From IMG/VR virus record IMGVR_UViG_3300000292_000161: DNA of 17,698 nt. One strand, 5' to 3'. This stretch comes from a virus. Its lineage: Duplodnaviria > Heunggongvirae > Uroviricota > Caudoviricetes. The position numbers and the translations under genes were made by a program. This document shows positions 610 through 13,647 of the stretch, one piece after another. The notes below the pieces were generated by a model, which saw only the letters and a list, made by a program, of their open reading frames with translations, made no database searches and was not told the DNA's origin. Position 1 is the first letter of the stretch, and each line of letters begins with the position of its first letter.

Positions 610-645
610 TTCTGCCTCTCAGATTATATAGATAAGCAAAAAGGT

Positions 646-766
646 GTTGGTTCAGTTGGTTCAGTTGGTTTAATTTGTAAAGATCGTTGTTTTTATTGTG
701 TTTTTTCTGAAATGTTGAACCAACATCAACTCATTTTGAACCAACACAGCCCAGCTCTGAACCAAC
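646..766. repeat. iteron array: three tandem direct GTTGGTTCA copies followed by three inverted TGAACCAAC copies at 21-bp phasing
   Basis: Read directly: GTTGGTTCA at 646-654 and 655-663, GTTGGTTTA at 664-672; TGAACCAAC at 716-724, 737-745, 758-766. Lies in the divergent region between the 322..609 and 869..1312 genes. Confidence 0.8.
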
Positions 767-818
767 AACACAGCGATAGCTTTGTGATTGGTCCGTTATT
801 TTCTGGCTGATATTTGAG

Positions 819-868: not shown

Positions 869-1312
869 ATGGTCTTTGCAATGAGCAAATCTAATCTGAT
901 CGCGTTCCGCATCCCATCTGAATTGCAGGATGAGTTTAATCGGTCTGTTCTCGCTTCTGGAGGGGATAAAACCTCCTGGCTTGTTGATGCGATTCGCATG
1001 AAGCTGGGACAGCCGGAAAAGTCTATTGATTCACGAATGCTTGGGCTGGTGGAGCGCATGGAAAAAGCCGCTGCGTCGCTTATTGCCGGAAAGCCGAACA
1101 TCCCACCAAAGCCATATAACGAAACGGCAGTTATAAAGATCATTGCCGATACCATCCAACAGGGATTTGATAATGGGCGTGTGATAGCGGAACGGCTCAA
1201 TGAAGCAGGCTATCAAACAAAAGCTGGTAAAGCATGGGATAAAGACATTTACAGCGCGTGGAAGCGTCAGGGAAGCAATGCTGAAAAGTTATCAGTGGCT
1301 CTAAGAATGTAG
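869..1312 (+). CDS. putative ribbon-helix-helix (Arc/CopG-like) DNA-binding protein with C-terminal extension
   Basis: 147-aa ORF; alternative ATG at 881 (MSKSNL). N-terminus NLIAFRIPSELQDEF...SWLVDAIRMKLG fits a beta-strand/helix/helix RHH pattern. No clear SD for either start. Confidence 0.55.
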   Translation: MVFAMSKSNLIAFRIPSELQDEFNRSVLASGGDKTSWLVDAIRMKLGQPEKSIDSRMLGLVERMEKAAASLIAGKPNIPPKPYNETAVIKIIADTIQQGFDNGRVIAERLNEAGYQTKAGKAWDKDIYSAWKRQGSNAEKLSVALRM

Positions 1313-1328
1313 CCCTATATTTTGATTT

Positions 1329-1706
1329 TTAGACGTGCTCGGAGAACAGGTAGCGTGCCATCACTAAAACAATGCCAAAGACTTCAGCGAGGGTTCCCCC
1401 CATAAATAGGTTTATAACGAAATCACTAAAATGGAGCAGTTTTGCTCCAATAAGGACAAAAATCCCATTCATAACTAATAGCTGGCCTATCAGAATGCCG
1501 ATAAACCACCGAGCAAACATTTTTTTCAGTTTTGTGTCTGTTTTTAAATCTTTTGTTTTTGCACGCTGATGGGCTTTGGCTGGATCCTTATCATTTAGAT
1601 GTGTGAGGGTTTTTGCTGATGGAGATGAGCCAGAGGCTGGTTCACCTCTGGCTTGTCTTGCCGCTTGCTTTAGTTTTTCAGATATAGCGTAAGATCTAGA
1701 CGTCAT
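1329..1706 (-). CDS. small membrane protein (polar/basic N-terminus, two C-terminal TM helices)
   Basis: 125-aa ORF; ATG at 1706 lies 3 nt after the TGA of the upstream ImmA-like gene (coupled). Hydrophobic segments FIGILIGQLLVMNGIFVLIGA and GGTLAEVFGIVLVMARYLF. Confidence 0.6.
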   Translation of the reverse strand: MTSRSYAISEKLKQAARQARGEPASGSSPSAKTLTHLNDKDPAKAHQRAKTKDLKTDTKLKKMFARWFIGILIGQLLVMNGIFVLIGAKLLHFSDFVINLFMGGTLAEVFGIVLVMARYLFSEHV

Positions 1707-1709
1707 TAC

Positions 1710-2198
1710 TCATCGAAGCCCTAAATTCTTTAGGCGATAACGTATAGCATCATCGGATACACCAAAATAGGAAGCCATCATTACTGGTGCATATCCTGCA
1801 TTGTTGAGGCGTCGAACCTCTTTTTCTGGCATGAGAAGACATGCTGCAAAGTTATTGGCGAATATTTCTTCGCTGTCTACACCTTGGCTTGCCAGTTTTC
1901 CGCGGTAATCAACAAACTCATATTCAAGTGGCTGACCGTTCTCAGTTCGTTTGACGTAATGCCCTAACTCATGCGCACACGTAAATCGTTTGCGCACGTT
2001 ACTATCATTACGATTGAGTATGATTACTGGATCTTGTTCTGGCTCTTTCAGCAATGCGCCTGAAACATCATCATCAAGCGTGGTTTCAACAACATCCAAC
2101 CCTAACTCATTGGCAATCCATACTGGATCAACCGGGAATTTCCTATCGCCCCAGATATCTTTCAAGAGGGCATGTGCAGATGTATTCGACATGTTCAC
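1710..2198 (-). CDS. ImmA/IrrE-family (DUF955, COG2856) zinc metallopeptidase
   Basis: 162-aa ORF with HEXXH (FTCAHELGHYV) followed by the family-typical ANNFAACLLMP. Strong SD AAAGGAGGTGAAC immediately before the ATG at 2198. Confidence 0.85.
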   Translation of the reverse strand: MNMSNTSAHALLKDIWGDRKFPVDPVWIANELGLDVVETTLDDDVSGALLKEPEQDPVIILNRNDSNVRKRFTCAHELGHYVKRTENGQPLEYEFVDYRGKLASQGVDSEEIFANNFAACLLMPEKEVRRLNNAGYAPVMMASYFGVSDDAIRYRLKNLGLR

Positions 2199-2886
2199 CT
2201 CCTTTGATTATGGTTAAATAGTCGAAATTTTCACCACTTCCCTTGTGGATATATTTACATATAAAAGGTAACTAGTCACTAACCAACACAAATCTTTTTG
2301 AAGACAGATGGGGGGTGTTGAACGGTTTTTAAATGATTTCTTTGATTTTTAACAGCAATAAGGAGCATTTTTAATGAAATTAGACGTTGATAATAACTTT
2401 TTGAGCAATCTTTACATATCATGGTAGCCTTCTATGCTGTTTTTCCAACTAAAAGATTGGCACATTTATCCGCTGGTAGTGGCGTTTTTTCGCCGCCAGC
2501 GCCTCTCTGGTTCCATTCCTTACATCTGTTCAAATTCAGCAACCCTTGCCGCGATCTTGCCGTTATCGAGAAGCTCTTTCGCTTTTCGGTTAATACTATC
2601 GGTCTTCATATTGCCAGCAGCATACGCCATCCGATAATTTCGATGCTACGCGCGCGTACTTGTCGCAAAATATCAGGCAAAGGCCAGATTCAGAAAGTCG
2701 TGATAACCACCAGCACAACATGAGAGGTCATGTAACGCGATTTATCACACCAGATACATGTGATTGGTGTACCCGCATAAAACATCGTCATAGCGCGTCC
2801 TGTGCGCATATACGCCGATAATCAACACATCACCACCACTCTGTCTCGTGTAGAGAACAGTTTCATGGTATCCCCCGCCATCGTGT

Positions 2887-2949
2887 GCGTACTGGTCGGA
2901 CGTGGTTGCAAAATTTTTGCAACTGATACCCCTCGCGCGCGTACTGGTC
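2887..2949. repeat. two direct GCGTACTGGTC 11-mers flanking a perfect 19-bp palindrome
   Basis: 11-mers at 2887-2897 and 2939-2949; palindrome GTTGCAAAA-T-TTTTGCAAC at 2905-2923. Related (CG)4-containing copies at 2647-2664 and 3013-3027. Confidence 0.6.
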
Positions 2950-3142
2950 ACGAAATTGGTGTTTTGCTGTGGCAGTGATATCAGAAAAATCTTCCTGTTT
3001 CACATAAAGCGGATATGCGCGTACTGTAACGGCCCCATCAACGGGGAGCGGATTTGAAATCCCGACCCAAGCTATGTACCAAATGCCATGTCTTGGATAT
3101 ATGATGATTGCCATTCTAAACAAAGCTAAAGGGAGGGTTGGT

Positions 3143-3499
3143 GTGAGGGGGCAGGCAGTTATAATTATTTTGTTGGGTTTAATTGTCGCAAAGTTATACC
3201 CGACTTTATCGATGGTGTTTTTTGCCATTATTGGCGCAGCCATCTTTACTTATATCATTAAACATACCGCCTTGTGGTTCTATAAAATTGATATAGTTCA
3301 GAAGTTTGTACGTCCTGTGTCGATGTTATTACTAGCATTAATACCAATTGGTGTTGCTTATGTAATTGATGTTTTTTACCCTTCGGACACTGAAAGGTGG
3401 TTGATAGTTTTGTATTGTTATATTGGTGTAGCTCTCTTTTGTGGATTTCATTGGTGTTTCGAAAAGATCAATGACTCTATTTCAAAGAATAAAGATTGA
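3143..3499 (+). CDS. small integral membrane protein (3-4 predicted TM helices), AT-rich
   Basis: ORF is open from 3074; most plausible start is GTG at 3143 with SD GGGAGGG at 3131-3137 (ATG alternatives at 3074/3101/3104). Highly hydrophobic; convergent with the 705-aa gene. Confidence 0.6.
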   Translation: MRGQAVIIILLGLIVAKLYPTLSMVFFAIIGAAIFTYIIKHTALWFYKIDIVQKFVRPVSMLLLALIPIGVAYVIDVFYPSDTERWLIVLYCYIGVALFCGFHWCFEKINDSISKNKD

Positions 3500-3513
3500 G
3501 GCCATCCGTGGCC
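3500..3513. terminator. short GC hairpin between convergent stop codons
   Basis: GGCCA-TCCG-TGGCC lies between the stop at 3497-3499 (+) and the stop at 3519-3521 (-). Stem is only 5 bp with no clear U-tract, so weak. Confidence 0.3.
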
Positions 3514-3518
3514 ATTCA

Positions 3519-5636
3519 CTAGTCATTATCTGGATCATTAGATAGCCAAGTAATGATGCCCAGTCTGGCGATGGTCCGTTTTTCCTGTTCAGGAAGAGAG
3601 TTAAAAAAACTCTTCCATTGAGGGGAGCGCCTGATACGTGAATCAACAATGTGCCCAGGCGCTTTTCCGTGTAGATTTTTTACTGCGCTCTGGAAGGCTG
3701 GCGAGGCAATTAATTTATCCGCAGCATCAGCCGCCCCTGCTCCACCAGCTAATCGAGCTTTACTCGCCAATCTTGCTCCAATATCAGCCCCAGCAATGGC
3801 TCCAAGCGATCCAAAATGAGCGCCTACCATCGTGCCTATTTTTTGAATGTGTTTTGCTGCTAGTTCGTATGGAGCTGTTACCCGATTAAATCTGTTTACA
3901 AACTCATTCAGCTTACCAGTAGATATTTCATGCGCTTTAGCATTTTTTATTGCTCTGGCAACTTTGTATACATCATATAGTCCGCTCATTGTTTCTTTTG
4001 GCAAATGTTCAGCCAAAGTCTTTAGCTGTCCACTGTGTTGCAAGTTTTGCCACCAATCTGCAAAGCCAGATGGATTAAAGTCGGCCCCACGCTTCCCAGA
4101 GGAAAGCATATCTCTTAATGCTGTTCCTACTAGCTCCCTTCGCAATGTTCTTGATGGAGTATTTTGCATAATCTCACGAAACCCTCTCGCATCACCTTTT
4201 GCCATAGATTGAAGAGAATTCGTTACTTTATACGCTATATCCCCATTAAGTGTTTTCCCGCGAAGATTTACCATTTGCCTTTCTAAGTTTTTTCTCATAG
4301 CTACAAGGCGTTGTGCGACTTCGAAATCTCGCAAGTATCCAGTATTGGATAAGACAGATTTTTGGTCTTCAGCTAAAGCTCCATATAGTCTTGATAGCGC
4401 TTCTTTATCAGCATCTTTGTATGGCCCCTGCTTTTTATTTAGGGCATCACCAACTAAACGCCTTTGCCTGTTTAAATTTGCATACGTTAGGATGCTATCT
4501 GGGCCGGGGTTTATTGCTGTAAAAACTCGCTTTTCTATTGGGTCAAGATTATCCCACCCTCCTAAATCATCAGCGATTTTTTCCAGCATAGTGCTTGTGT
4601 TATTTGCTTCGACTTTTGTTCTTGGTGATAGAGCGGAATCAACACGTTTATATAACTGATCACTACGGTTTTTTAGTGCTTCCATTCTACTATTTATCTG
4701 ATAAATATATTTTTCGCTCATAGCTAACGCATCTGGCGCACCAGCAACATCATCGATTATCTTGTCAGCACTAGAGGCTAATTCGCTTATTGCTTTATCT
4801 TCTTGAGCTTTTAACGCTGATCCTGTCCGTGACTTTAGGGCTTGCTCTACAGCTTGGTATTGCTCATTTCCTGATAAATGAGAAGGAAGAACTGAATCAA
4901 CATGAAGCCTATTTGCAGCCTCAACAATTTCTTTCTGAGGTTTTAGATCTAGCCCTTCAAGCGAAGAGGCAAGATTTGGGTTGCCTTGTGCAGATAACTT
5001 ACGAATTTTCTCTTCGGCAGGAGTAATCCCCTCAATATCTGGAATCGAAGAAACATTCTTCTTGGTTAATTTCCCAGCTATTTTATTAATTGCAGGGCCA
5101 GCAAGTTCGGCTACAGGGCCAGCCACAGCGCCAATAGCAGCGCCGGAAGCAACATCGCTATTTGTTCCATTGGCTACAATAGCCCCTTCTCCAGCACCAA
5201 GCCCTACGGCGGCAGCCAGTCTTGCCGCCCCTTTGGGAACCTGAGAAATAATCCCACCACCACTAACAAATGGCGCTGCTTGTCCAACGAACTCACCAAC
5301 ATCTTGTGCGGTTGATGGTTTTGCCGCTAACTTCTGCTGTAGAGACTGAATTGCGGCTTGCTCTTCTGGTGTCATATCCTGAAACAGGCCAACACCTTTA
5401 CCAACATCCATCAATCCACTGAGAACGCCATACATAAAACGGTCGAAACCGTTAGCATTATTAACAACATTTTCCTGTCTGGAATTTTCCTCTGGTGAAA
5501 CCAAAGGTGATTGCTGCTGTTCTGGTTGGGCATCAAGCACAAAACCATCAGGAAGCTGTGAACTATCAGGAAACTGTGAGTTATCAGGTTGTTCATCGAG
5601 CACAAAACCTTCCGGTAAGATTACATTTGCTGCCAT
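3519..5636 (-). CDS. hypothetical 705-aa protein, repeat-rich N-terminus, Gly/Ala-rich low-complexity tracts, C-terminal glycine-zipper-like segment
   Basis: ATG at 5636 with AGGAA 7 nt upstream; overlaps the upstream gene by 16 nt. N-terminal repeats LPEGFVLDEQP / LPDGFVLDAQP; C-terminal GAHFGSLGAIAGADIGARLA; no Walker or nuclease motifs seen. Confidence 0.8.
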   Translation of the reverse strand: MAANVILPEGFVLDEQPDNSQFPDSSQLPDGFVLDAQPEQQQSPLVSPEENSRQENVVNNANGFDRFMYGVLSGLMDVGKGVGLFQDMTPEEQAAIQSLQQKLAAKPSTAQDVGEFVGQAAPFVSGGGIISQVPKGAARLAAAVGLGAGEGAIVANGTNSDVASGAAIGAVAGPVAELAGPAINKIAGKLTKKNVSSIPDIEGITPAEEKIRKLSAQGNPNLASSLEGLDLKPQKEIVEAANRLHVDSVLPSHLSGNEQYQAVEQALKSRTGSALKAQEDKAISELASSADKIIDDVAGAPDALAMSEKYIYQINSRMEALKNRSDQLYKRVDSALSPRTKVEANNTSTMLEKIADDLGGWDNLDPIEKRVFTAINPGPDSILTYANLNRQRRLVGDALNKKQGPYKDADKEALSRLYGALAEDQKSVLSNTGYLRDFEVAQRLVAMRKNLERQMVNLRGKTLNGDIAYKVTNSLQSMAKGDARGFREIMQNTPSRTLRRELVGTALRDMLSSGKRGADFNPSGFADWWQNLQHSGQLKTLAEHLPKETMSGLYDVYKVARAIKNAKAHEISTGKLNEFVNRFNRVTAPYELAAKHIQKIGTMVGAHFGSLGAIAGADIGARLASKARLAGGAGAADAADKLIASPAFQSAVKNLHGKAPGHIVDSRIRRSPQWKSFFNSLPEQEKRTIARLGIITWLSNDPDND

Positions 5637-6964
5637 TTTCCGTTCCTGTAAATGATTTTCTGACCAGTTTTAGGGTTGGTTGCCGTTGCGCCTTCTGATA
5701 TTCCTCCGGTTGCCGCTTTTGCCTGTCCAGTGCCAGCCTGTGATGTAGGCTGCCCGGAAACATCGTCAAATAGCTTCGCTTTCCTTCTTTCAAGGCTTTT
5801 TCTTAGCCCCTGAGGAATAGTTTCTCCATATGTATCGAGATACTCGTCAACCTGCTGGTTAAACTGCTGCCCCATAGCATTGGCGTTGATTTTTGCGGCG
5901 TTAACAATGTTATCCTTTGCCTCCTGCGACAGGCCGTTTCCAGCATTAAGCTGGTCTATGTATCCTTTGATTTGTCCCCATATGCCATCAGACCGCATTA
6001 CCTGAACCTGTTCGCCTTCACGAACGACTGACTGCGGGTCAAGAGATTTCATGTAGTTGAAGATAATCCCAAGTTGGGCAGCGCCAGTATTTACCTTGCT
6101 AAGGGCTTGCAGAGAGTTTGCCGCCGCTCTGACAGAGTTATAATTTTTGCCAAAATTGGTAATGTCAGAATTTAATCCCTTAATTAAGTCTGCTGACGGC
6201 TTACCTTTTTGCCCCAGCTCCATTAGCTTCAATCCCATCTCATCTGAGTGAATTTGTGCTCGCTGAGCCCTGTCTAGTTGAGCGTTCTGGATATTTGCCC
6301 ATCCTCTCGCGTTCTCCATGTCAGCCTGACGCATACTTTCATCCAGTCGCCCTTGCTCAAGTCGACGACCTTCCATTTGATCTTTGATATCGAAATACTT
6401 CTCATGACCGAGAGAAAACAGCGCCAGATTACCTGCGAAATGCTGGAAGCCCTGCGGGTCATTAACCTGCATTTCAGCAATAGTTTCTGGAGGGATACCT
6501 AAACGACGCATCTCCTGCTCATTATCCATCATGAACCTGCCAAATGCGCCCTGACCAAGCGATGAGGCTACCTGTGCTTTGAGCGCCAGATTGCCATAAT
6601 CATCCCTTTGAGCATCATCGACATAACTCATCCCTTTACGGACTTCCTCAAACTCTTCTGGGAATGCTGTAATAAGATTACGCATCTGCTCCCTGTCACC
6701 GGACGCATAAGCATCTGCATAACCTTTCTGGAATGCCGCTTTACGTTCCTGCTGTTGCTGCTGCTTATAAATGTCAGCAACTCCAGCCAGACCACGAAGA
6801 CCTGTCAGAGCAACGTTATTTGCACCTGAGCGAGCCAGTTCATTGTTTTCGCGGATCAGACCAAGCGTTGCGTTAATGTCGCTTGCCTTTGGCGCATTCT
6901 CATTTTGCGCACCGATGCCAGCCAGAAAACCACCAGAATTAATACCCTGTTGCCACGTAGCCAT
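5621..6964 (-). CDS. hypothetical 447-451-aa Gln-rich, probably coiled-coil protein
   Basis: ATG at 6964, 4 nt after the TAA of the 57-aa gene (in-frame GTG at 6976 is the alternative start). Contains poly-Q KQQQQQERK and many Q/E/R heptad-like stretches; no catalytic motif recognised. Confidence 0.8.
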   Translation of the reverse strand: MATWQQGINSGGFLAGIGAQNENAPKASDINATLGLIRENNELARSGANNVALTGLRGLAGVADIYKQQQQQERKAAFQKGYADAYASGDREQMRNLITAFPEEFEEVRKGMSYVDDAQRDDYGNLALKAQVASSLGQGAFGRFMMDNEQEMRRLGIPPETIAEMQVNDPQGFQHFAGNLALFSLGHEKYFDIKDQMEGRRLEQGRLDESMRQADMENARGWANIQNAQLDRAQRAQIHSDEMGLKLMELGQKGKPSADLIKGLNSDITNFGKNYNSVRAAANSLQALSKVNTGAAQLGIIFNYMKSLDPQSVVREGEQVQVMRSDGIWGQIKGYIDQLNAGNGLSQEAKDNIVNAAKINANAMGQQFNQQVDEYLDTYGETIPQGLRKSLERRKAKLFDDVSGQPTSQAGTGQAKAATGGISEGATATNPKTGQKIIYRNGKWQQM

Positions 6965-6968
6965 AAAT

Positions 6969-7142
6969 TTACCCACGTCCAGTTAAAGTGTAAGCCAGCG
7001 CCTTATCCATTAATCCCCGAGCAATTTCGTGGATCGTTGGCGCAACTCCTACCTCTGATTTTTTACGCTGCTCCTCCTGAATTTTCTTTATCGCTTCCAT
7101 TTGCTTCTCACTTATCAATACTGGCTTTACTGAAATAGCCAT
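6969..7142 (-). CDS. 57-aa putative DNA-binding regulator (possibly ribbon-helix-helix), first gene of the cargo operon
   Basis: The 100-aa ORF trimmed to the ATG at 7142, preceded by AAGGGGGG. Sequence MAISVKPVLISEKQMEAIKKIQEE..TIHEIARGLMDKAL; function inferred from size and position only. Confidence 0.5.
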   Translation of the reverse strand: MAISVKPVLISEKQMEAIKKIQEEQRKKSEVGVAPTIHEIARGLMDKALAYTLTGRG

Positions 7143-8879: not shown

Positions 8880-11307
8880 TTAAAAAACATCATAACCCCC
8901 CATACCGATCAGACGGGCAAACGCAGCCTGTAGAACTCCGACCTCTGGTAGTTCGTAGAACACGCCATTCCCTCGGTCTGGTCTTCCATGCTTCACCAGC
9001 CCCATTTGTGCAAGTGATTTACCCAGTAGTGATCTGGCAGCTGGTTCTTTAAGCTTTTCCCCACGCTCAAGCGACCACGCTACAAACCGACTAACCATAT
9101 CCTTTGCAAACAAACGGACTTCGCCATTAAACGGAGGTTCATTGATTAGCTCGCCATAAAGAAACAATTCAACGCCAGACAGCCCCAGCAAGATTTCTTC
9201 ACGTAAGGCATCGGTCTGTGGCGCTCGTTGAGGGTCAAAACCTGAGAGATCCACCCCTTTAAGATGCCAAAGCAACTTTGCGGCACCGCCATCATTAAGC
9301 CAACTGTACAGCCGATCAAAATACTCCCGGCTCTGTGCTTTTTCAGGAGATGGCTCAAGCACGAGATAGCGGCGCTCTCTTATCCCTGCCTGTAATACCT
9401 GTGTGCTGTTACTGGCAAATATCAACCGGGCAAAATTCGGCATTGGTTCAGCATCAATTCCCTTGCGCTCAAGGTTAAACGTCGGTTCGCTAATAATCGC
9501 TTTAAGTCTGTCAGCTTCAGACGGCTTGTGGATCGTCACTTCGTCAGCAAATACCAGTAGCTTGTTAGCAAGTATTGAATTGAAGCGCCCTGAAATATGT
9601 CCCGCCCCGTTAATGTGGGCGGCGTACTGCCCCAGTATTTGCAGCAGCGGTTTAACCGTTGTGCCTTTCCCTGTGCCCGGGACAGATTTCATCACGATTG
9701 CCACGGACGGTTTTTCATCAGGCTTTTGGATAATGTGCGCCATCCACTGGATAAGATATTGGTATGCCTCTTCATTACCGGCACAGACAACCTGCAACAG
9801 GTGATTAAGGTATACCGTGCAATCTCCTTCAATTGGTTCCAGTGCCAGCCCCTCATACAGATTAAAAACATCGTCAGGGCATTTGTCTGGTACTGGATAA
9901 AATCCTACGCCTCCTGGCTTGTAGTTCTTCCCACTCCATGACAGCCACGCCGATCCCGCCAGCTTTCTGGCGACTCTCGGTTTATGATGAAAATAATGCT
10001 GAAATTGTGATAAATCCTCGAAAACGTGCGATACACCGCCGGTTTGAGAAGGCTTTAGCGACACCACCTTGTGTTTCCCGCCGATGGTGACATGCGTAAA
10101 CGTCCGGTTGATTTCTTCGAGGACAGCAATTTCATCATCGCTTAACACCTCGCCAGAACTGATCTCATTCAGCGCCCCGACTGACTGTTTGTGATTTTTC
10201 ACCTGCGCCCCTTTCCCCCGTGGCTGGTACATCGAATCTTTAAATGCTGCTGTGGCTGCCGCCAGCCCGTGTTGTTGGTGATAGTCGTTCCAGTCGGCTT
10301 TATAGTCAGTCGGTGGCAGAGACACCCAGCCAGCTACGGAAATAGCGGCCCTCTCTGCGGCATCTTTCCCCGTGTTGATCCCTCCACTTTCGGAGTTTCC
10401 TTGCTGGTGATCGTTATCTGCGGCAATGATGATTTGTGCCTGTGGATATGTTCTGCGCATGACTTCCGCTACTGGCAACAGGTTGCCAGCGTCGATTGCT
10501 GCCACTGTCATTGCGTCAGGGCGAATTAAATGGCACGACAGGGCGGTAGCCACCCCCTCAGCAATTATGNNNNNNNNNNNNNNNNNNNNNNNNNNNNNNN
10601 NNNNNNNNNNNNNNNNNNNNNNNNNNNNNNNNNNNNNNNNNNNNNNNNNNNNNNNNNNNNNNCTGTGCGTTTATGGCGTGATATGCCCCTCGCTTTGCTG
10701 AACCTGTCAGGAGTCTTTTTTCACCATGTGAGGTAATAGTCTGTGCTGCTGTAACTGCGCCGGATTTATCCACCAGCGCCAGCAACAGAGATCCATCGGG
10801 CAACACAGGGAATGTAAAATCACCTACCCCTTTCGCAACCAGATAATCAGATTTGCCGTTTACAGCCTTTCTGCGCATGTCATCAAACTGACGGGAAAAC
10901 GTATCCCGTCTTTGTTGTTCGTCCTTCTCTGCCCTTTTCAGGCGCTCCTGTTCGCGTCGCTGGCGCTCGGTTTCCAGTTGTTCCCGTTTCTGGCTGGTGG
11001 CTTCTGGTGTTTCCGTTGTCCGGTAATCAATACCCAGAACATCAGCGGCAAGCAGCGCCGCCTCTGTTGTGTCGCAGTTATTTACGCGTTTAATTAAATC
11101 CAGCCCATCACCAGCGCCGCACTGATTACAGATGAAGCTACCGCGCCCGTTGTCATCGAACCGGAATCGGTCTTTGCCCCCACATGCAGGGCAGGGAGCA
11201 TGACGGCGCGGAGAGTCAGGGACATTTATGTTCAGGCAGCCCAGCACATGAGGCCAGTTGTTTTCAGACGCACTGATAACCTGACGGATAAGATCAATGT
11301 TTCGCAT
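8880..11307 (-). CDS. P4-type DNA primase/helicase (Zn-ribbon + TOPRIM + D5-like P-loop NTPase), interrupted by an assembly gap
   Basis: N-terminal piece (10558..11307) has CPACGG...CNQCG zinc ribbon; C-terminal piece (8880..10553) has IIIAADND (TOPRIM-like) and P-loop VPGTGKGTT. ATG at 11307 with SD ACGGGGG. Frame across the gap is uninformative. Confidence 0.85.
10570..10662. other. assembly gap (93 N) inside the primase gene
   Basis: Run of n characters read directly from the sequence. Confidence 0.99.
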
Positions 11308-12985: not shown

Positions 12986-13647
12986 GTGGCAGCCTCCTTC
13001 AGATAGCAGGTTACGCTACCACCGGAAACGCCAATTTCGCTGGTGGTAGCCCAGACAGGGTTGGCGTAACCGGCTCTGAAGGATACCGGCGCTTCCGAAG
13101 AAGCCCCCGCCTGAGCCACCATTGATTGACAAAGGCGCTGGATTATACACCAACGCCCAAAAAATGGGTGAGTCAGACCTACGACATAAAAAAAGACGCT
13201 CGGCGCGTCATATGTCGCCTTCAGAATTTTCAGGACGCCAATCCCGGCACCCGTTTTATGAGGTGCCTTATAACCATAAACCGTGTTGCCGCATAACGGC
13301 AAGCTCTTTTTTATGGACTCCGAAAACTCACTATTGGAAGAACCAGAAGCACAGTACATCGCGCTCATTTCGTTAACGTCACGCGCGTGGACGAAGGTTT
13401 TTGTGGAGTCACTACACGAGCAGAGAAAGCCATCTACGACCAGAAATTCTCTGGCATAGCCGCTGACCTTCTCAACGCTAACACCATCGACCGTAATTTC
13501 TGACATAGTTAAGGCATCCGCTCCTACCACCAGCAAATGATAAACTTTGCTTGTATCTGCTGTATTAATGTCTGACTTTGCTGTCATATTGCTGGATTTT
13601 GGCGACATACCAGCCAGTGAAAATGTCTTCTTCTGGACGGGTATCAT
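12986..13647 (-). CDS. hypothetical protein, start well supported, 3-prime end undetermined
   Basis: ATG at 13647 with SD GGAGGT and ATGA overlap with the upstream gene. Coding-like to about 13010, but the frame has no stop until 12580, so a frameshift or sequence error is possible. Confidence 0.4.

Follow-up and report, generated by a model that had tools for sequence, protein, structure and literature searches.

A two-gene cassette on an Escherichia coli island is probably a RosmerTA toxin-antitoxin module of the helix-turn-helix-less Kita subtype

Repressor cleavage is the classical role of ImmA/IrrE peptidases. What, then, is such an enzyme doing beside a small membrane protein, with no XRE repressor gene next to it? 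The question is raised by IMG/VR virus record IMGVR_UViG_3300000292_000161, a stretch of 17,698 nucleotides (nt) that we analysed at its full length and refer to as the window, in which two genes on the minus strand encode a 160-amino-acid (aa) peptidase and a 125-aa membrane protein. Our answer, in which we have good confidence, is that this cassette is a RosmerTA toxin-antitoxin (TA) module of the subtype that lacks a helix-turn-helix (HTH) domain, as found in phage Kita, and that it is exchangeable accessory cargo of a phage-satellite-like island.

The first gene of the cassette (1710..2192, minus strand), which would be the rmrA-like antitoxin gene, encodes a single-domain ImmA/IrrE (M78) zinc peptidase without HTH or GAF domain. 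Its open reading frame (ORF) was listed as 1710..2198(-), but the RefSeq start codon, an ATG at 2192 that yields 160 aa, is most likely the real one: the Shine-Dalgarno sequence AGGAGG (2198..2203, minus strand) stands 6 nt upstream, and AGGAGG or GGAGG is kept at the matching position in the Pectobacterium, Serratia and Salmonella copies of the cassette and in that of viral contig L032. The protein matches Pfam Peptidase_M78 (PF06114; E = 9.6e-20, 71 bits against a cut-off of 22) and contains both HELGH (residues 74-78) and the motif E109-x2-AN-x-FA-x2-LLMP. The predicted zinc-binding and catalytic residues are H74, E75, H78 and E109, the last of which is aligned with Glu129, a zinc ligand in CapP. 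A PADLOC scan returned capP as the best match (4.9e-25, profile positions 5-150 of 242) along with 13 RmrA models (E from 9e-14 to 2e-4), the latter matched in their peptidase part only (positions ~165-292 of ~380), and the NCBIfam model for the spr1629-family antitoxin matched at 2.8e-9. The AlphaFold2 model of the peptidase (pLDDT 86.6) has CapP (7t5t) and IrrE/PprI (3dte) as its best matches in the PDB and corresponds to the peptidase and linker part of CapP/IrrE without the GAF domain, that is, to 160 of the 278 residues of 7t5t. All 120 peptidase homologues among the matches listed are likewise short (96-200 aa) and carry PF06114 only. RefSeq names the products of the two genes ‘ImmA/IrrE family metallo-endopeptidase’ and ‘hypothetical protein’.

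The hypothetical protein, encoded by the rmrT-like putative toxin gene (1329..1706, minus strand), appears to be an inner-membrane protein made up of a basic disordered tail (residues 1-56), a juxtamembrane motif D..DT.LKK..A and a transmembrane (TM) hairpin. Hydropathy places its two hydrophobic segments at ~66-88 and ~96-118, its 62 N-terminal residues include 15 K+R vs 6 D+E, and AlphaFold2 models a helical hairpin at 57-124 preceded by a low-confidence tail at 1-56. The peptidase stop codon and the membrane-protein start codon are separated by a spacer of 3 nt (1707..1709, minus strand; junction TGA-GTA-ATG), which is consistent with translational coupling. The original prediction, made from the letters of the window, had described an ImmA/IrrE-type peptidase coupled to a two-TM protein with a basic N-terminus, and the 71-bit M78 match, the spacer and the two hydrophobic segments bear this description out.

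Family alignments reveal that polar residues (Q75, N80, T105 and E108) are conserved within the TM hairpin and that the proteobacterial branch has a conserved D..D[RT].LK[KR]..YA at the membrane, where the variable disordered tail ends. The L-K-[KR] just before TM1 is near-invariant in the family, and the tail itself varies widely in both length and sequence. From the distribution of charges we infer that both ends of the protein face the cytoplasm, so that a cytoplasmic peptidase could reach the tail. An exhaustive profile search of a 1.8-billion-protein library yielded 1,488 representatives of the membrane-protein family at E<=1e-3, which makes it a large family (~1,500 representatives in public data after clustering at 50%). 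No match was obtained in a sequence search of the PDB with the membrane-protein profile.

The identity of the pair emerged by way of the peptidase. A tblastn search of the GenBank phages gave no match with the membrane protein; with the peptidase, it gave one E. coli phage and then a block of Gordonia phages that included Kita, and profiles subsequently confirmed the link for the second gene. The peptidase is 43% identical to Kita gp32 over 99% of the query (E = 1e-29). Kita genes 32 (a metallo-protease of 178 aa) and 33 (119 aa) share 4 nt, their order is that seen in the window, and gp33 has two C-terminal hydrophobic segments. Our hidden Markov model (HMM) of the membrane family matches gp33 with 24.0 bits over 81 residues, whereas the best of 5,000 shuffles of gp33 that preserved the composition of each segment reached 11.3 bits, and thus the match is not an effect of composition. 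In agreement with this, hhalign of the membrane family vs gp33 gave E = 3.9e-5, an HMM built from 150 representatives matched gp33 at 37.4 bits, and phmmer with gp33 reached individual members, with a best E of 4.6e-10 among the 150.

Both Kita proteins are known from experiment. Ernits et al. (2023; PMC10440598), in their supplement, list YP_009301393 (gp32) as RmrA(D25) and YP_009301394 (gp33) as RmrT(D5); RmrT(D5) of Kita stops growth immediately and leaves the membrane depolarized and permeabilized, with the Kita pair, E. coli is protected from Bas54 and Bas59 of the BASEL phages, and an XRE HTH is described as ‘often’ present on RmrA, not as universal (PMC10440598). Given the homology of both genes to RmrA(D25) and RmrT(D5), the window cassette falls into place as a proteobacterial member of the HTH-less RosmerTA subtype. 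As in Kita, a short M78 peptidase without HTH is followed by a small protein of the same family with a C-terminal two-helix membrane hairpin, the genes come in the same order and are tightly coupled, and both pairs are found on mobile elements. There are also differences, in that the toxins share ~25% identity, seen by profiles only, the host phyla are not the same, and the proteobacterial juxtamembrane motif D..D[RT].LK[KR]..YA is not obvious in gp33.

With the canonical RosmerTA systems (Millman et al., 2022; S. pneumoniae spr1629/1630; the E. coli E101 module) the window cassette shares the pairing of a COG2856/M78 zinc-peptidase antitoxin with a variable toxin of unknown fold, and the character of a two-gene, mobile, defence-associated module. 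Its adjacent co-directional gene is homologous to a validated RmrT, that of Kita. Canonical RmrA differs from the window peptidase in being ~360-400 aa long, with an XRE HTH at its N-terminus and an extension at its C-terminus; this HTH, absent from the window peptidase, is absent from Kita RmrA as well. Furthermore, the toxin gene of canonical systems often comes first, and their toxins are unrelated to that of the window.

How constant is the association of the two genes? With a profile of the membrane-protein homologues we searched contigs representing one genome per species (30 loci) and viral contigs (14 full-length loci). In all 44 loci a peptidase homologue (39-67% identity) lies directly upstream of the membrane-protein gene on the same strand, and the intergenic spacing in 41 homologous pairs ranges from -4 to +15 nt. 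HExxH and E..AN.FA..LLMP are kept in 43 of the 44 peptidases, and a near-universal HExxH suggests that catalysis matters. The 30 genomic loci come from Gamma- and Betaproteobacteria, Nitrospirota, Desulfobacterota, Bacteroidota and a Bacillota metagenome-assembled genome (MAG). A reverse search that started from the peptidase found three more distant homologues (on high-G+C contigs), each of them again followed by a gene for a divergent or decayed relative of the membrane protein. Beside the pair we found no third conserved gene among the homologous loci examined, its flanks being occupied by genes as various as those for thiamine synthesis (thiD/E), ppiD, phoA, gltX, rpoD and a Mu portal protein, or by insertion sequence elements and integrases.

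These neighbourhoods also bear on the matter of the repressor. The cargo segment that holds the cassette in the window has no HTH gene, and its 360 nt upstream of the cassette offer, as a hidden XRE partner, only an unconserved 47-aa ORF; no mutual similarity links the small ORFs that neighbour the cassette in Pectobacterium, Serratia and Salmonella; and no HTH family recurs among the 84 flanking ORFs of 24 non-redundant loci drawn from the 30 genomic ones. The lack of an adjacent XRE repressor, which had been remarked upon from the window by itself, is therefore a property of the family rather than an anomaly of this locus, and it is normal for the HTH-less subtype: the comparison of homologous neighbourhoods that had been proposed as a check found no recurring HTH partner beside the 30 genomic loci, whereas the membrane protein is paired with the peptidase in all 44. 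The pair is thus a conserved stand-alone unit and not a rewired ImmA/ImmR switch.

The window peptidase does have its fold and catalytic motif in common with the enzymes of the ImmA/ImmR, IrrE/DdrO and CapP/CapH switches. Unlike them, however, the pair comes without an XRE substrate gene, a GAF domain or a regulated downstream operon, and the conserved partner is a membrane protein. No repressor gene that could serve as substrate is adjacent, and the loci are accessory slots or sites between housekeeping genes rather than a lysogeny or excision control region as for ImmA/ImmR; nor is there a CapP of three domains (peptidase, HTH-like linker and GAF) with CapH by a defence operon, and neither CapH nor CBASS was found near the window cassette. 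PanT-D11/PanA, one of the pairs of a membrane-depolarizing toxin and a protein antitoxin, offers another parallel. Its toxin is also small and combines a disordered N-terminal region with TM helices, and the PanA antitoxin contacts the toxin in the region just before the TM segment, but the antitoxin has the Panacea fold where ours is an M78 peptidase, and the two systems have no sequence relationship. In literature searches we came upon no account of a pairing of ‘ImmA plus small membrane protein’ in Vassallo 2022, Rousset 2022, Lau 2022 or the modularity-network papers.

The best-supported reading of the cassette is that of a toxin-antitoxin or abortive-infection module, with the membrane protein as effector under the restraint of the peptidase, and it draws on the anatomy of the two proteins, their strict pairing, their homology to an experimentally tested pair, and the cargo and hotspot locations described below. 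The 125-aa protein would insert in the inner membrane, both its ends being cytoplasmic; once free, it would oligomerize through its polar-studded TM hairpin and depolarize or permeabilize the membrane. The cytoplasmic M78 peptidase, translated just before the toxin from the same mRNA, would keep it harmless, most likely by acting on the disordered basic cytoplasmic tail through cleavage or binding. Should a phage infect the cell or the element be lost, this balance might be upset, whereupon the freed toxin would stop the cell and the infection would be aborted.

If the peptidase does act on the tail, the end of the tail at D..D[RT].LK[KR]..YA may, speculatively, be where it does so. A cut between L and K, predicted at L60|K61, would be akin to the F|R cleavage made by CapP and to the L|R site of IrrE. 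It is conceivable, though we regard it as rather doubtful, that the toxin is itself the substrate of the peptidase, cut in its disordered tail at L-K-[K/R] beside TM1, so that proteolysis would set the switch between the safe and the suicidal state. If true, the ImmA/IrrE family would gain its first substrate other than a repressor, and TA systems their first antitoxin that acts as a dedicated protease on a membrane toxin.

The same features could be read in the opposite sense. The original prediction had proposed a protease-gated membrane effector of the abortive-infection or toxin-like kind, and one may imagine an inactive pro-form of a pore from which the peptidase, switched on by a phage cue (for example single-stranded DNA, as for CapP, IrrE and ImmA), removes the basic tail. 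The nearest structural and profile relatives of the peptidase, CapP and IrrE, are indeed signal-activated proteases, the catalytic site is conserved (HExxH in 43 of 44), and the near-invariant L-K-[KR] before TM1 has the likeness to the F|R site already mentioned. Activation by cleavage is nonetheless disfavoured because the toxin of the tested homologue is immediately toxic alone and the peptidase lowers its toxicity (PMC10440598). In addition, the tight coupling with the peptidase gene first is the usual antitoxin-toxin order, the peptidase lacks the GAF domain that is thought to be the ligand sensor in CapP/IrrE, and a tail so variable in length and sequence would be unusual for an autoinhibitory pro-domain. 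We consider a protease-activated pore improbable; the effector half of the earlier proposal, in contrast, is strengthened by the Kita homology and by the defence slots in which the pair occurs.

Several observations weigh against reading the cassette as a RosmerTA module whose peptidase neutralizes the toxin. Toxicity, neutralization and defence are all carried over by analogy from an actinobacteriophage homologue with 43% (peptidase) and ~25% (toxin) identity. In Kita itself RmrA neutralizes RmrT(D5) only partly, and no confident model of an RmrA-RmrT complex was obtained (PMC10440598), and for these reasons a direct interaction between peptidase and toxin is hypothetical. No family among the PADLOC-DB 2.0 models matches the 125-aa protein at E<=1, so current tools, their RmrT models being blind to it, would not call the locus RosmerTA. 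There is no recognizable autoregulator in the operon. Finally, the most divergent pair, in a Methylococcaceae MAG (L025:3618-4477), has RELGR for HELGH and EDAFIY for EEIFAN. Both zinc histidines are gone and the peptidase is likely catalytically dead, while the toxin gene looks intact, which speaks against neutralization by proteolysis alone, in that binding may suffice, unless this copy is decaying. A HigB/HigA-like pair lies just upstream of it.

In E. coli the cassette itself is well preserved, being intact at >=99.4% identity in 69 of 69 complete carrier genomes. We did encounter four metagenome/Logan variants (P0006, P0016, P0025 and P0038) that are 90-99% identical to the window genes. 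These rare variants all damage the TM domain of the toxin while sparing the peptidase: one has a 12-residue deletion in TM1, two have frameshifts before TM1, and one is an in-frame fusion in which a deletion joins peptidase residues 1-138 to the toxin from I69. Such damage fits a costly effector, but assembly errors are possible. The fusion (P0025) was considered as a clue to a peptidase-toxin complex and set aside, as it is a deletion product and uninformative in this respect.

Where the cassette is found tells us more about its nature. Apart from a run of N, the window can be found unchanged in the chromosomes of E. coli GN06489 and many other extra-intestinal isolates. The cassette occupies a cargo segment (1292..2555) that comprises only the two genes and their upstream region and is replaced by other genes in sister E. 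coli elements: homology with three of these (L050, L051 and L052) ends at 1279/1291 and resumes at 2556/2579/2640. Some 545 complete E. coli genomes have the flanks and only 69 the cassette (out of 5426 complete genomes). In strain 07_3986 the same slot holds, in the same orientation, an Abi family protein (PADLOC AbiD, 6e-58), and in other strains a 73-aa ORF or a small HTH gene. The slot is bordered on one side by a ribbon-helix-helix (RHH)-like gene and on the other by a conserved non-coding stretch. This stretch (2556-3073, ~520 bp), upstream of the cassette, is 95-99% conserved in the ~545 E. coli genomes and bears no annotated feature; it had no Rfam match and no meaningful phage match.

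Copies in other genomes have comparable addresses. In viral contig L032 the cassette lies between a replication gene of the P2 gpA type and the portal gene gpQ, an interval that is a defence hotspot in P2 (Rousset et al., 2022; PMC9122126). The Salmonella copy is in a prophage moron region beside lom and hok, and the Pectobacterium and Serratia copies are on primase-bearing islands. At the same gpA-proximal place in OU784750 (‘Peduovirus P2’; 3498-4674), the gene after a more distant short ImmA (36% identity) encodes an unrelated two-TM protein of 159 aa, which looks like a swap of the toxin partner, as is typical of this class of antitoxin.

Might the cassette merely stabilize its island or prophage by addiction, with no role in phage defence? 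Its TA-typical architecture, its presence on integrative elements and its intactness in all 69 carriers would fit, and many TA systems have no defence phenotype. We give the idea little credence, however, since the slot is shared with AbiD and the cassette turns up in the P2 gpA-gpQ hotspot, the Kita homologue protects against Bas54 and Bas59, and some copies of the pair are flanked by housekeeping genes, with no element there to be stabilized.

A further proposal made from the window was that of a rewired induction switch. Spelled out, it would have the peptidase cleave a repressor encoded elsewhere on the island, for instance the RHH-like protein or an AlpA-type regulator, and so control excision or replication, with the membrane protein as sensor or anchor. 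It has in its favour the classical role of ImmA/IrrE peptidases, the possible RHH gene convergent with the cassette both here and in the Serratia island, and a lone iteron-like word near the promoter. The RHH-like gene (869/881..1312, plus strand; 147/143 aa) owes its label to an N-terminal pattern (IAFRIPSELQDEFNRSV...WLVDAIRMKL) and a weak PHROG match (E = 3.4e-4); it had no match in the PDB, Pfam or NCBIfam. In sister elements with AbiD or other cargo the gene is kept at 92-96% identity, diverging only in the last residues, and it is absent from 43 of the 44 other loci, while a homologue borders the cassette in the related Serratia island. From these sequence comparisons we take it to be island backbone bordering the slot and not a partner or substrate of the peptidase, as had been suggested.

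The iteron-like word fares little better. The word AACCAACACA is present at 2281..2290 (plus strand), as reported, beside a promoter-like element, and is an exact match to 739-748, but it lacks the first G of the core TGAACCAAC, whose five exact copies are all in 646-766. With one mismatch allowed there are 4 matches vs 1.2 expected, and 5 of 200 shuffles reach 4. The word falls within the exchangeable cargo, and its conservation does not extend to the upstream regions of the Pectobacterium and Salmonella copies. We regard a role as operator as unsupported; the significance of the word is doubtful, and it may be chance or a relic of an earlier neighbourhood. The promoter-like element itself, TAGTGACTAGTTACCTTTTATATGTAAATAT (2251..2281, minus strand), is proposed from conservation. 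The sole stretch upstream of the Shine-Dalgarno sequence that is common to the Pectobacterium and Serratia copies (TAGTGAC...TGTAAAGAT / TGCAAAGAT; TAGTGAC-N-TGTAAAnAT) falls here, and a scan for consensus promoters upstream of the cassette gave no better candidate.

The iteron cluster proper (window 644-769) consists of TGAACCAAC(A) in 2-3 copies at 9-bp spacing in one orientation and three copies at 21-bp spacing in the other, and both motif and layout are kept in sister elements L050-L052. In the related islands of Serratia and Pectobacterium (L057:6844-7095; L059:2543-2663 and 9206-9330) iterons also occur: Serratia has two clusters, one of them directly after the primase gene, and Pectobacterium has ten copies directly after the primase gene. 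This position 3' of the primase gene suggests, by analogy, that the iterons are replication-origin repeats of the island family. The ori and crr of P4 provide the model for such an arrangement. An induction switch is, then, a very remote prospect: the RHH-like gene behaves as backbone, AbiD replaces the cassette in sister elements, the pair stands alone between housekeeping genes and outside mobile elements in many genomes with no recurring HTH or RHH partner, and the iterons point to a replication origin.

The island that hosts the cassette is ~18 kb long and inserted between dinD and yicC. Its genes encode a tyrosine integrase, an AlpA-like HTH protein, an AntA/B antirepressor, an Ash-family protein, a PerC regulator, a P4-type primase-helicase (Zn-ribbon, Toprim and DUF5906) and P22-type ejection proteins (Inj_translocase and gp16-like), so that it presents itself as a mosaic of P4-type primase, P22 ejection proteins and PerC. 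We found no capsid or tail genes on it, which gives it the look of a phage satellite or else of a mosaic remnant. The primase-helicase gene seemed at first to be split into two ORFs, a reading that we rejected as an artefact of the N-run, since at 10570-10662 the window has 93 N in place of 17 nt of real sequence, inside what is a single gene in RefSeq (8880..11231). Two Rfam matches exceeded the gathering score, a C4 antisense RNA (79.9 bits) and the IsrK Hfq-binding small RNA (67.8 bits), at 13039-13126(-) and 13189-13266(-). They lie within or beside the Ash-family ORF, downstream of the AntA/B antirepressor gene, and together they mark an antisense control region of the immI kind known from P1/P7. 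On the far side of the conserved non-coding stretch, a gene at 3074-3499(+) encodes a 141-aa multi-pass membrane protein with weak Bax1-I and CBO0543-family matches; it adjoins genes for P22 gp16-like and gp20-like ejection proteins (3519-6976, minus strand), a position that recalls sieA of P22.

What is new here is an unannotated E. coli copy of a known RosmerTA module, a finding that is real but fairly ordinary. Two genes carried by 69 of 5426 complete E. coli genomes gain a name and a testable function. Because PADLOC 2.0 misses the toxin, this subtype of RosmerTA is probably under-counted, which amounts to a gap in detection. The variable cargo slot of the island family defined by PerC, P22 ejection proteins and a P4-type primase (~545 E. 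coli genomes) could moreover be mined for defence genes. Beyond this slot, the residual interest lies in the means by which an M78 peptidase that has no repressor partner keeps control of a membrane toxin, a question that a copy native to E. coli makes easy to test.

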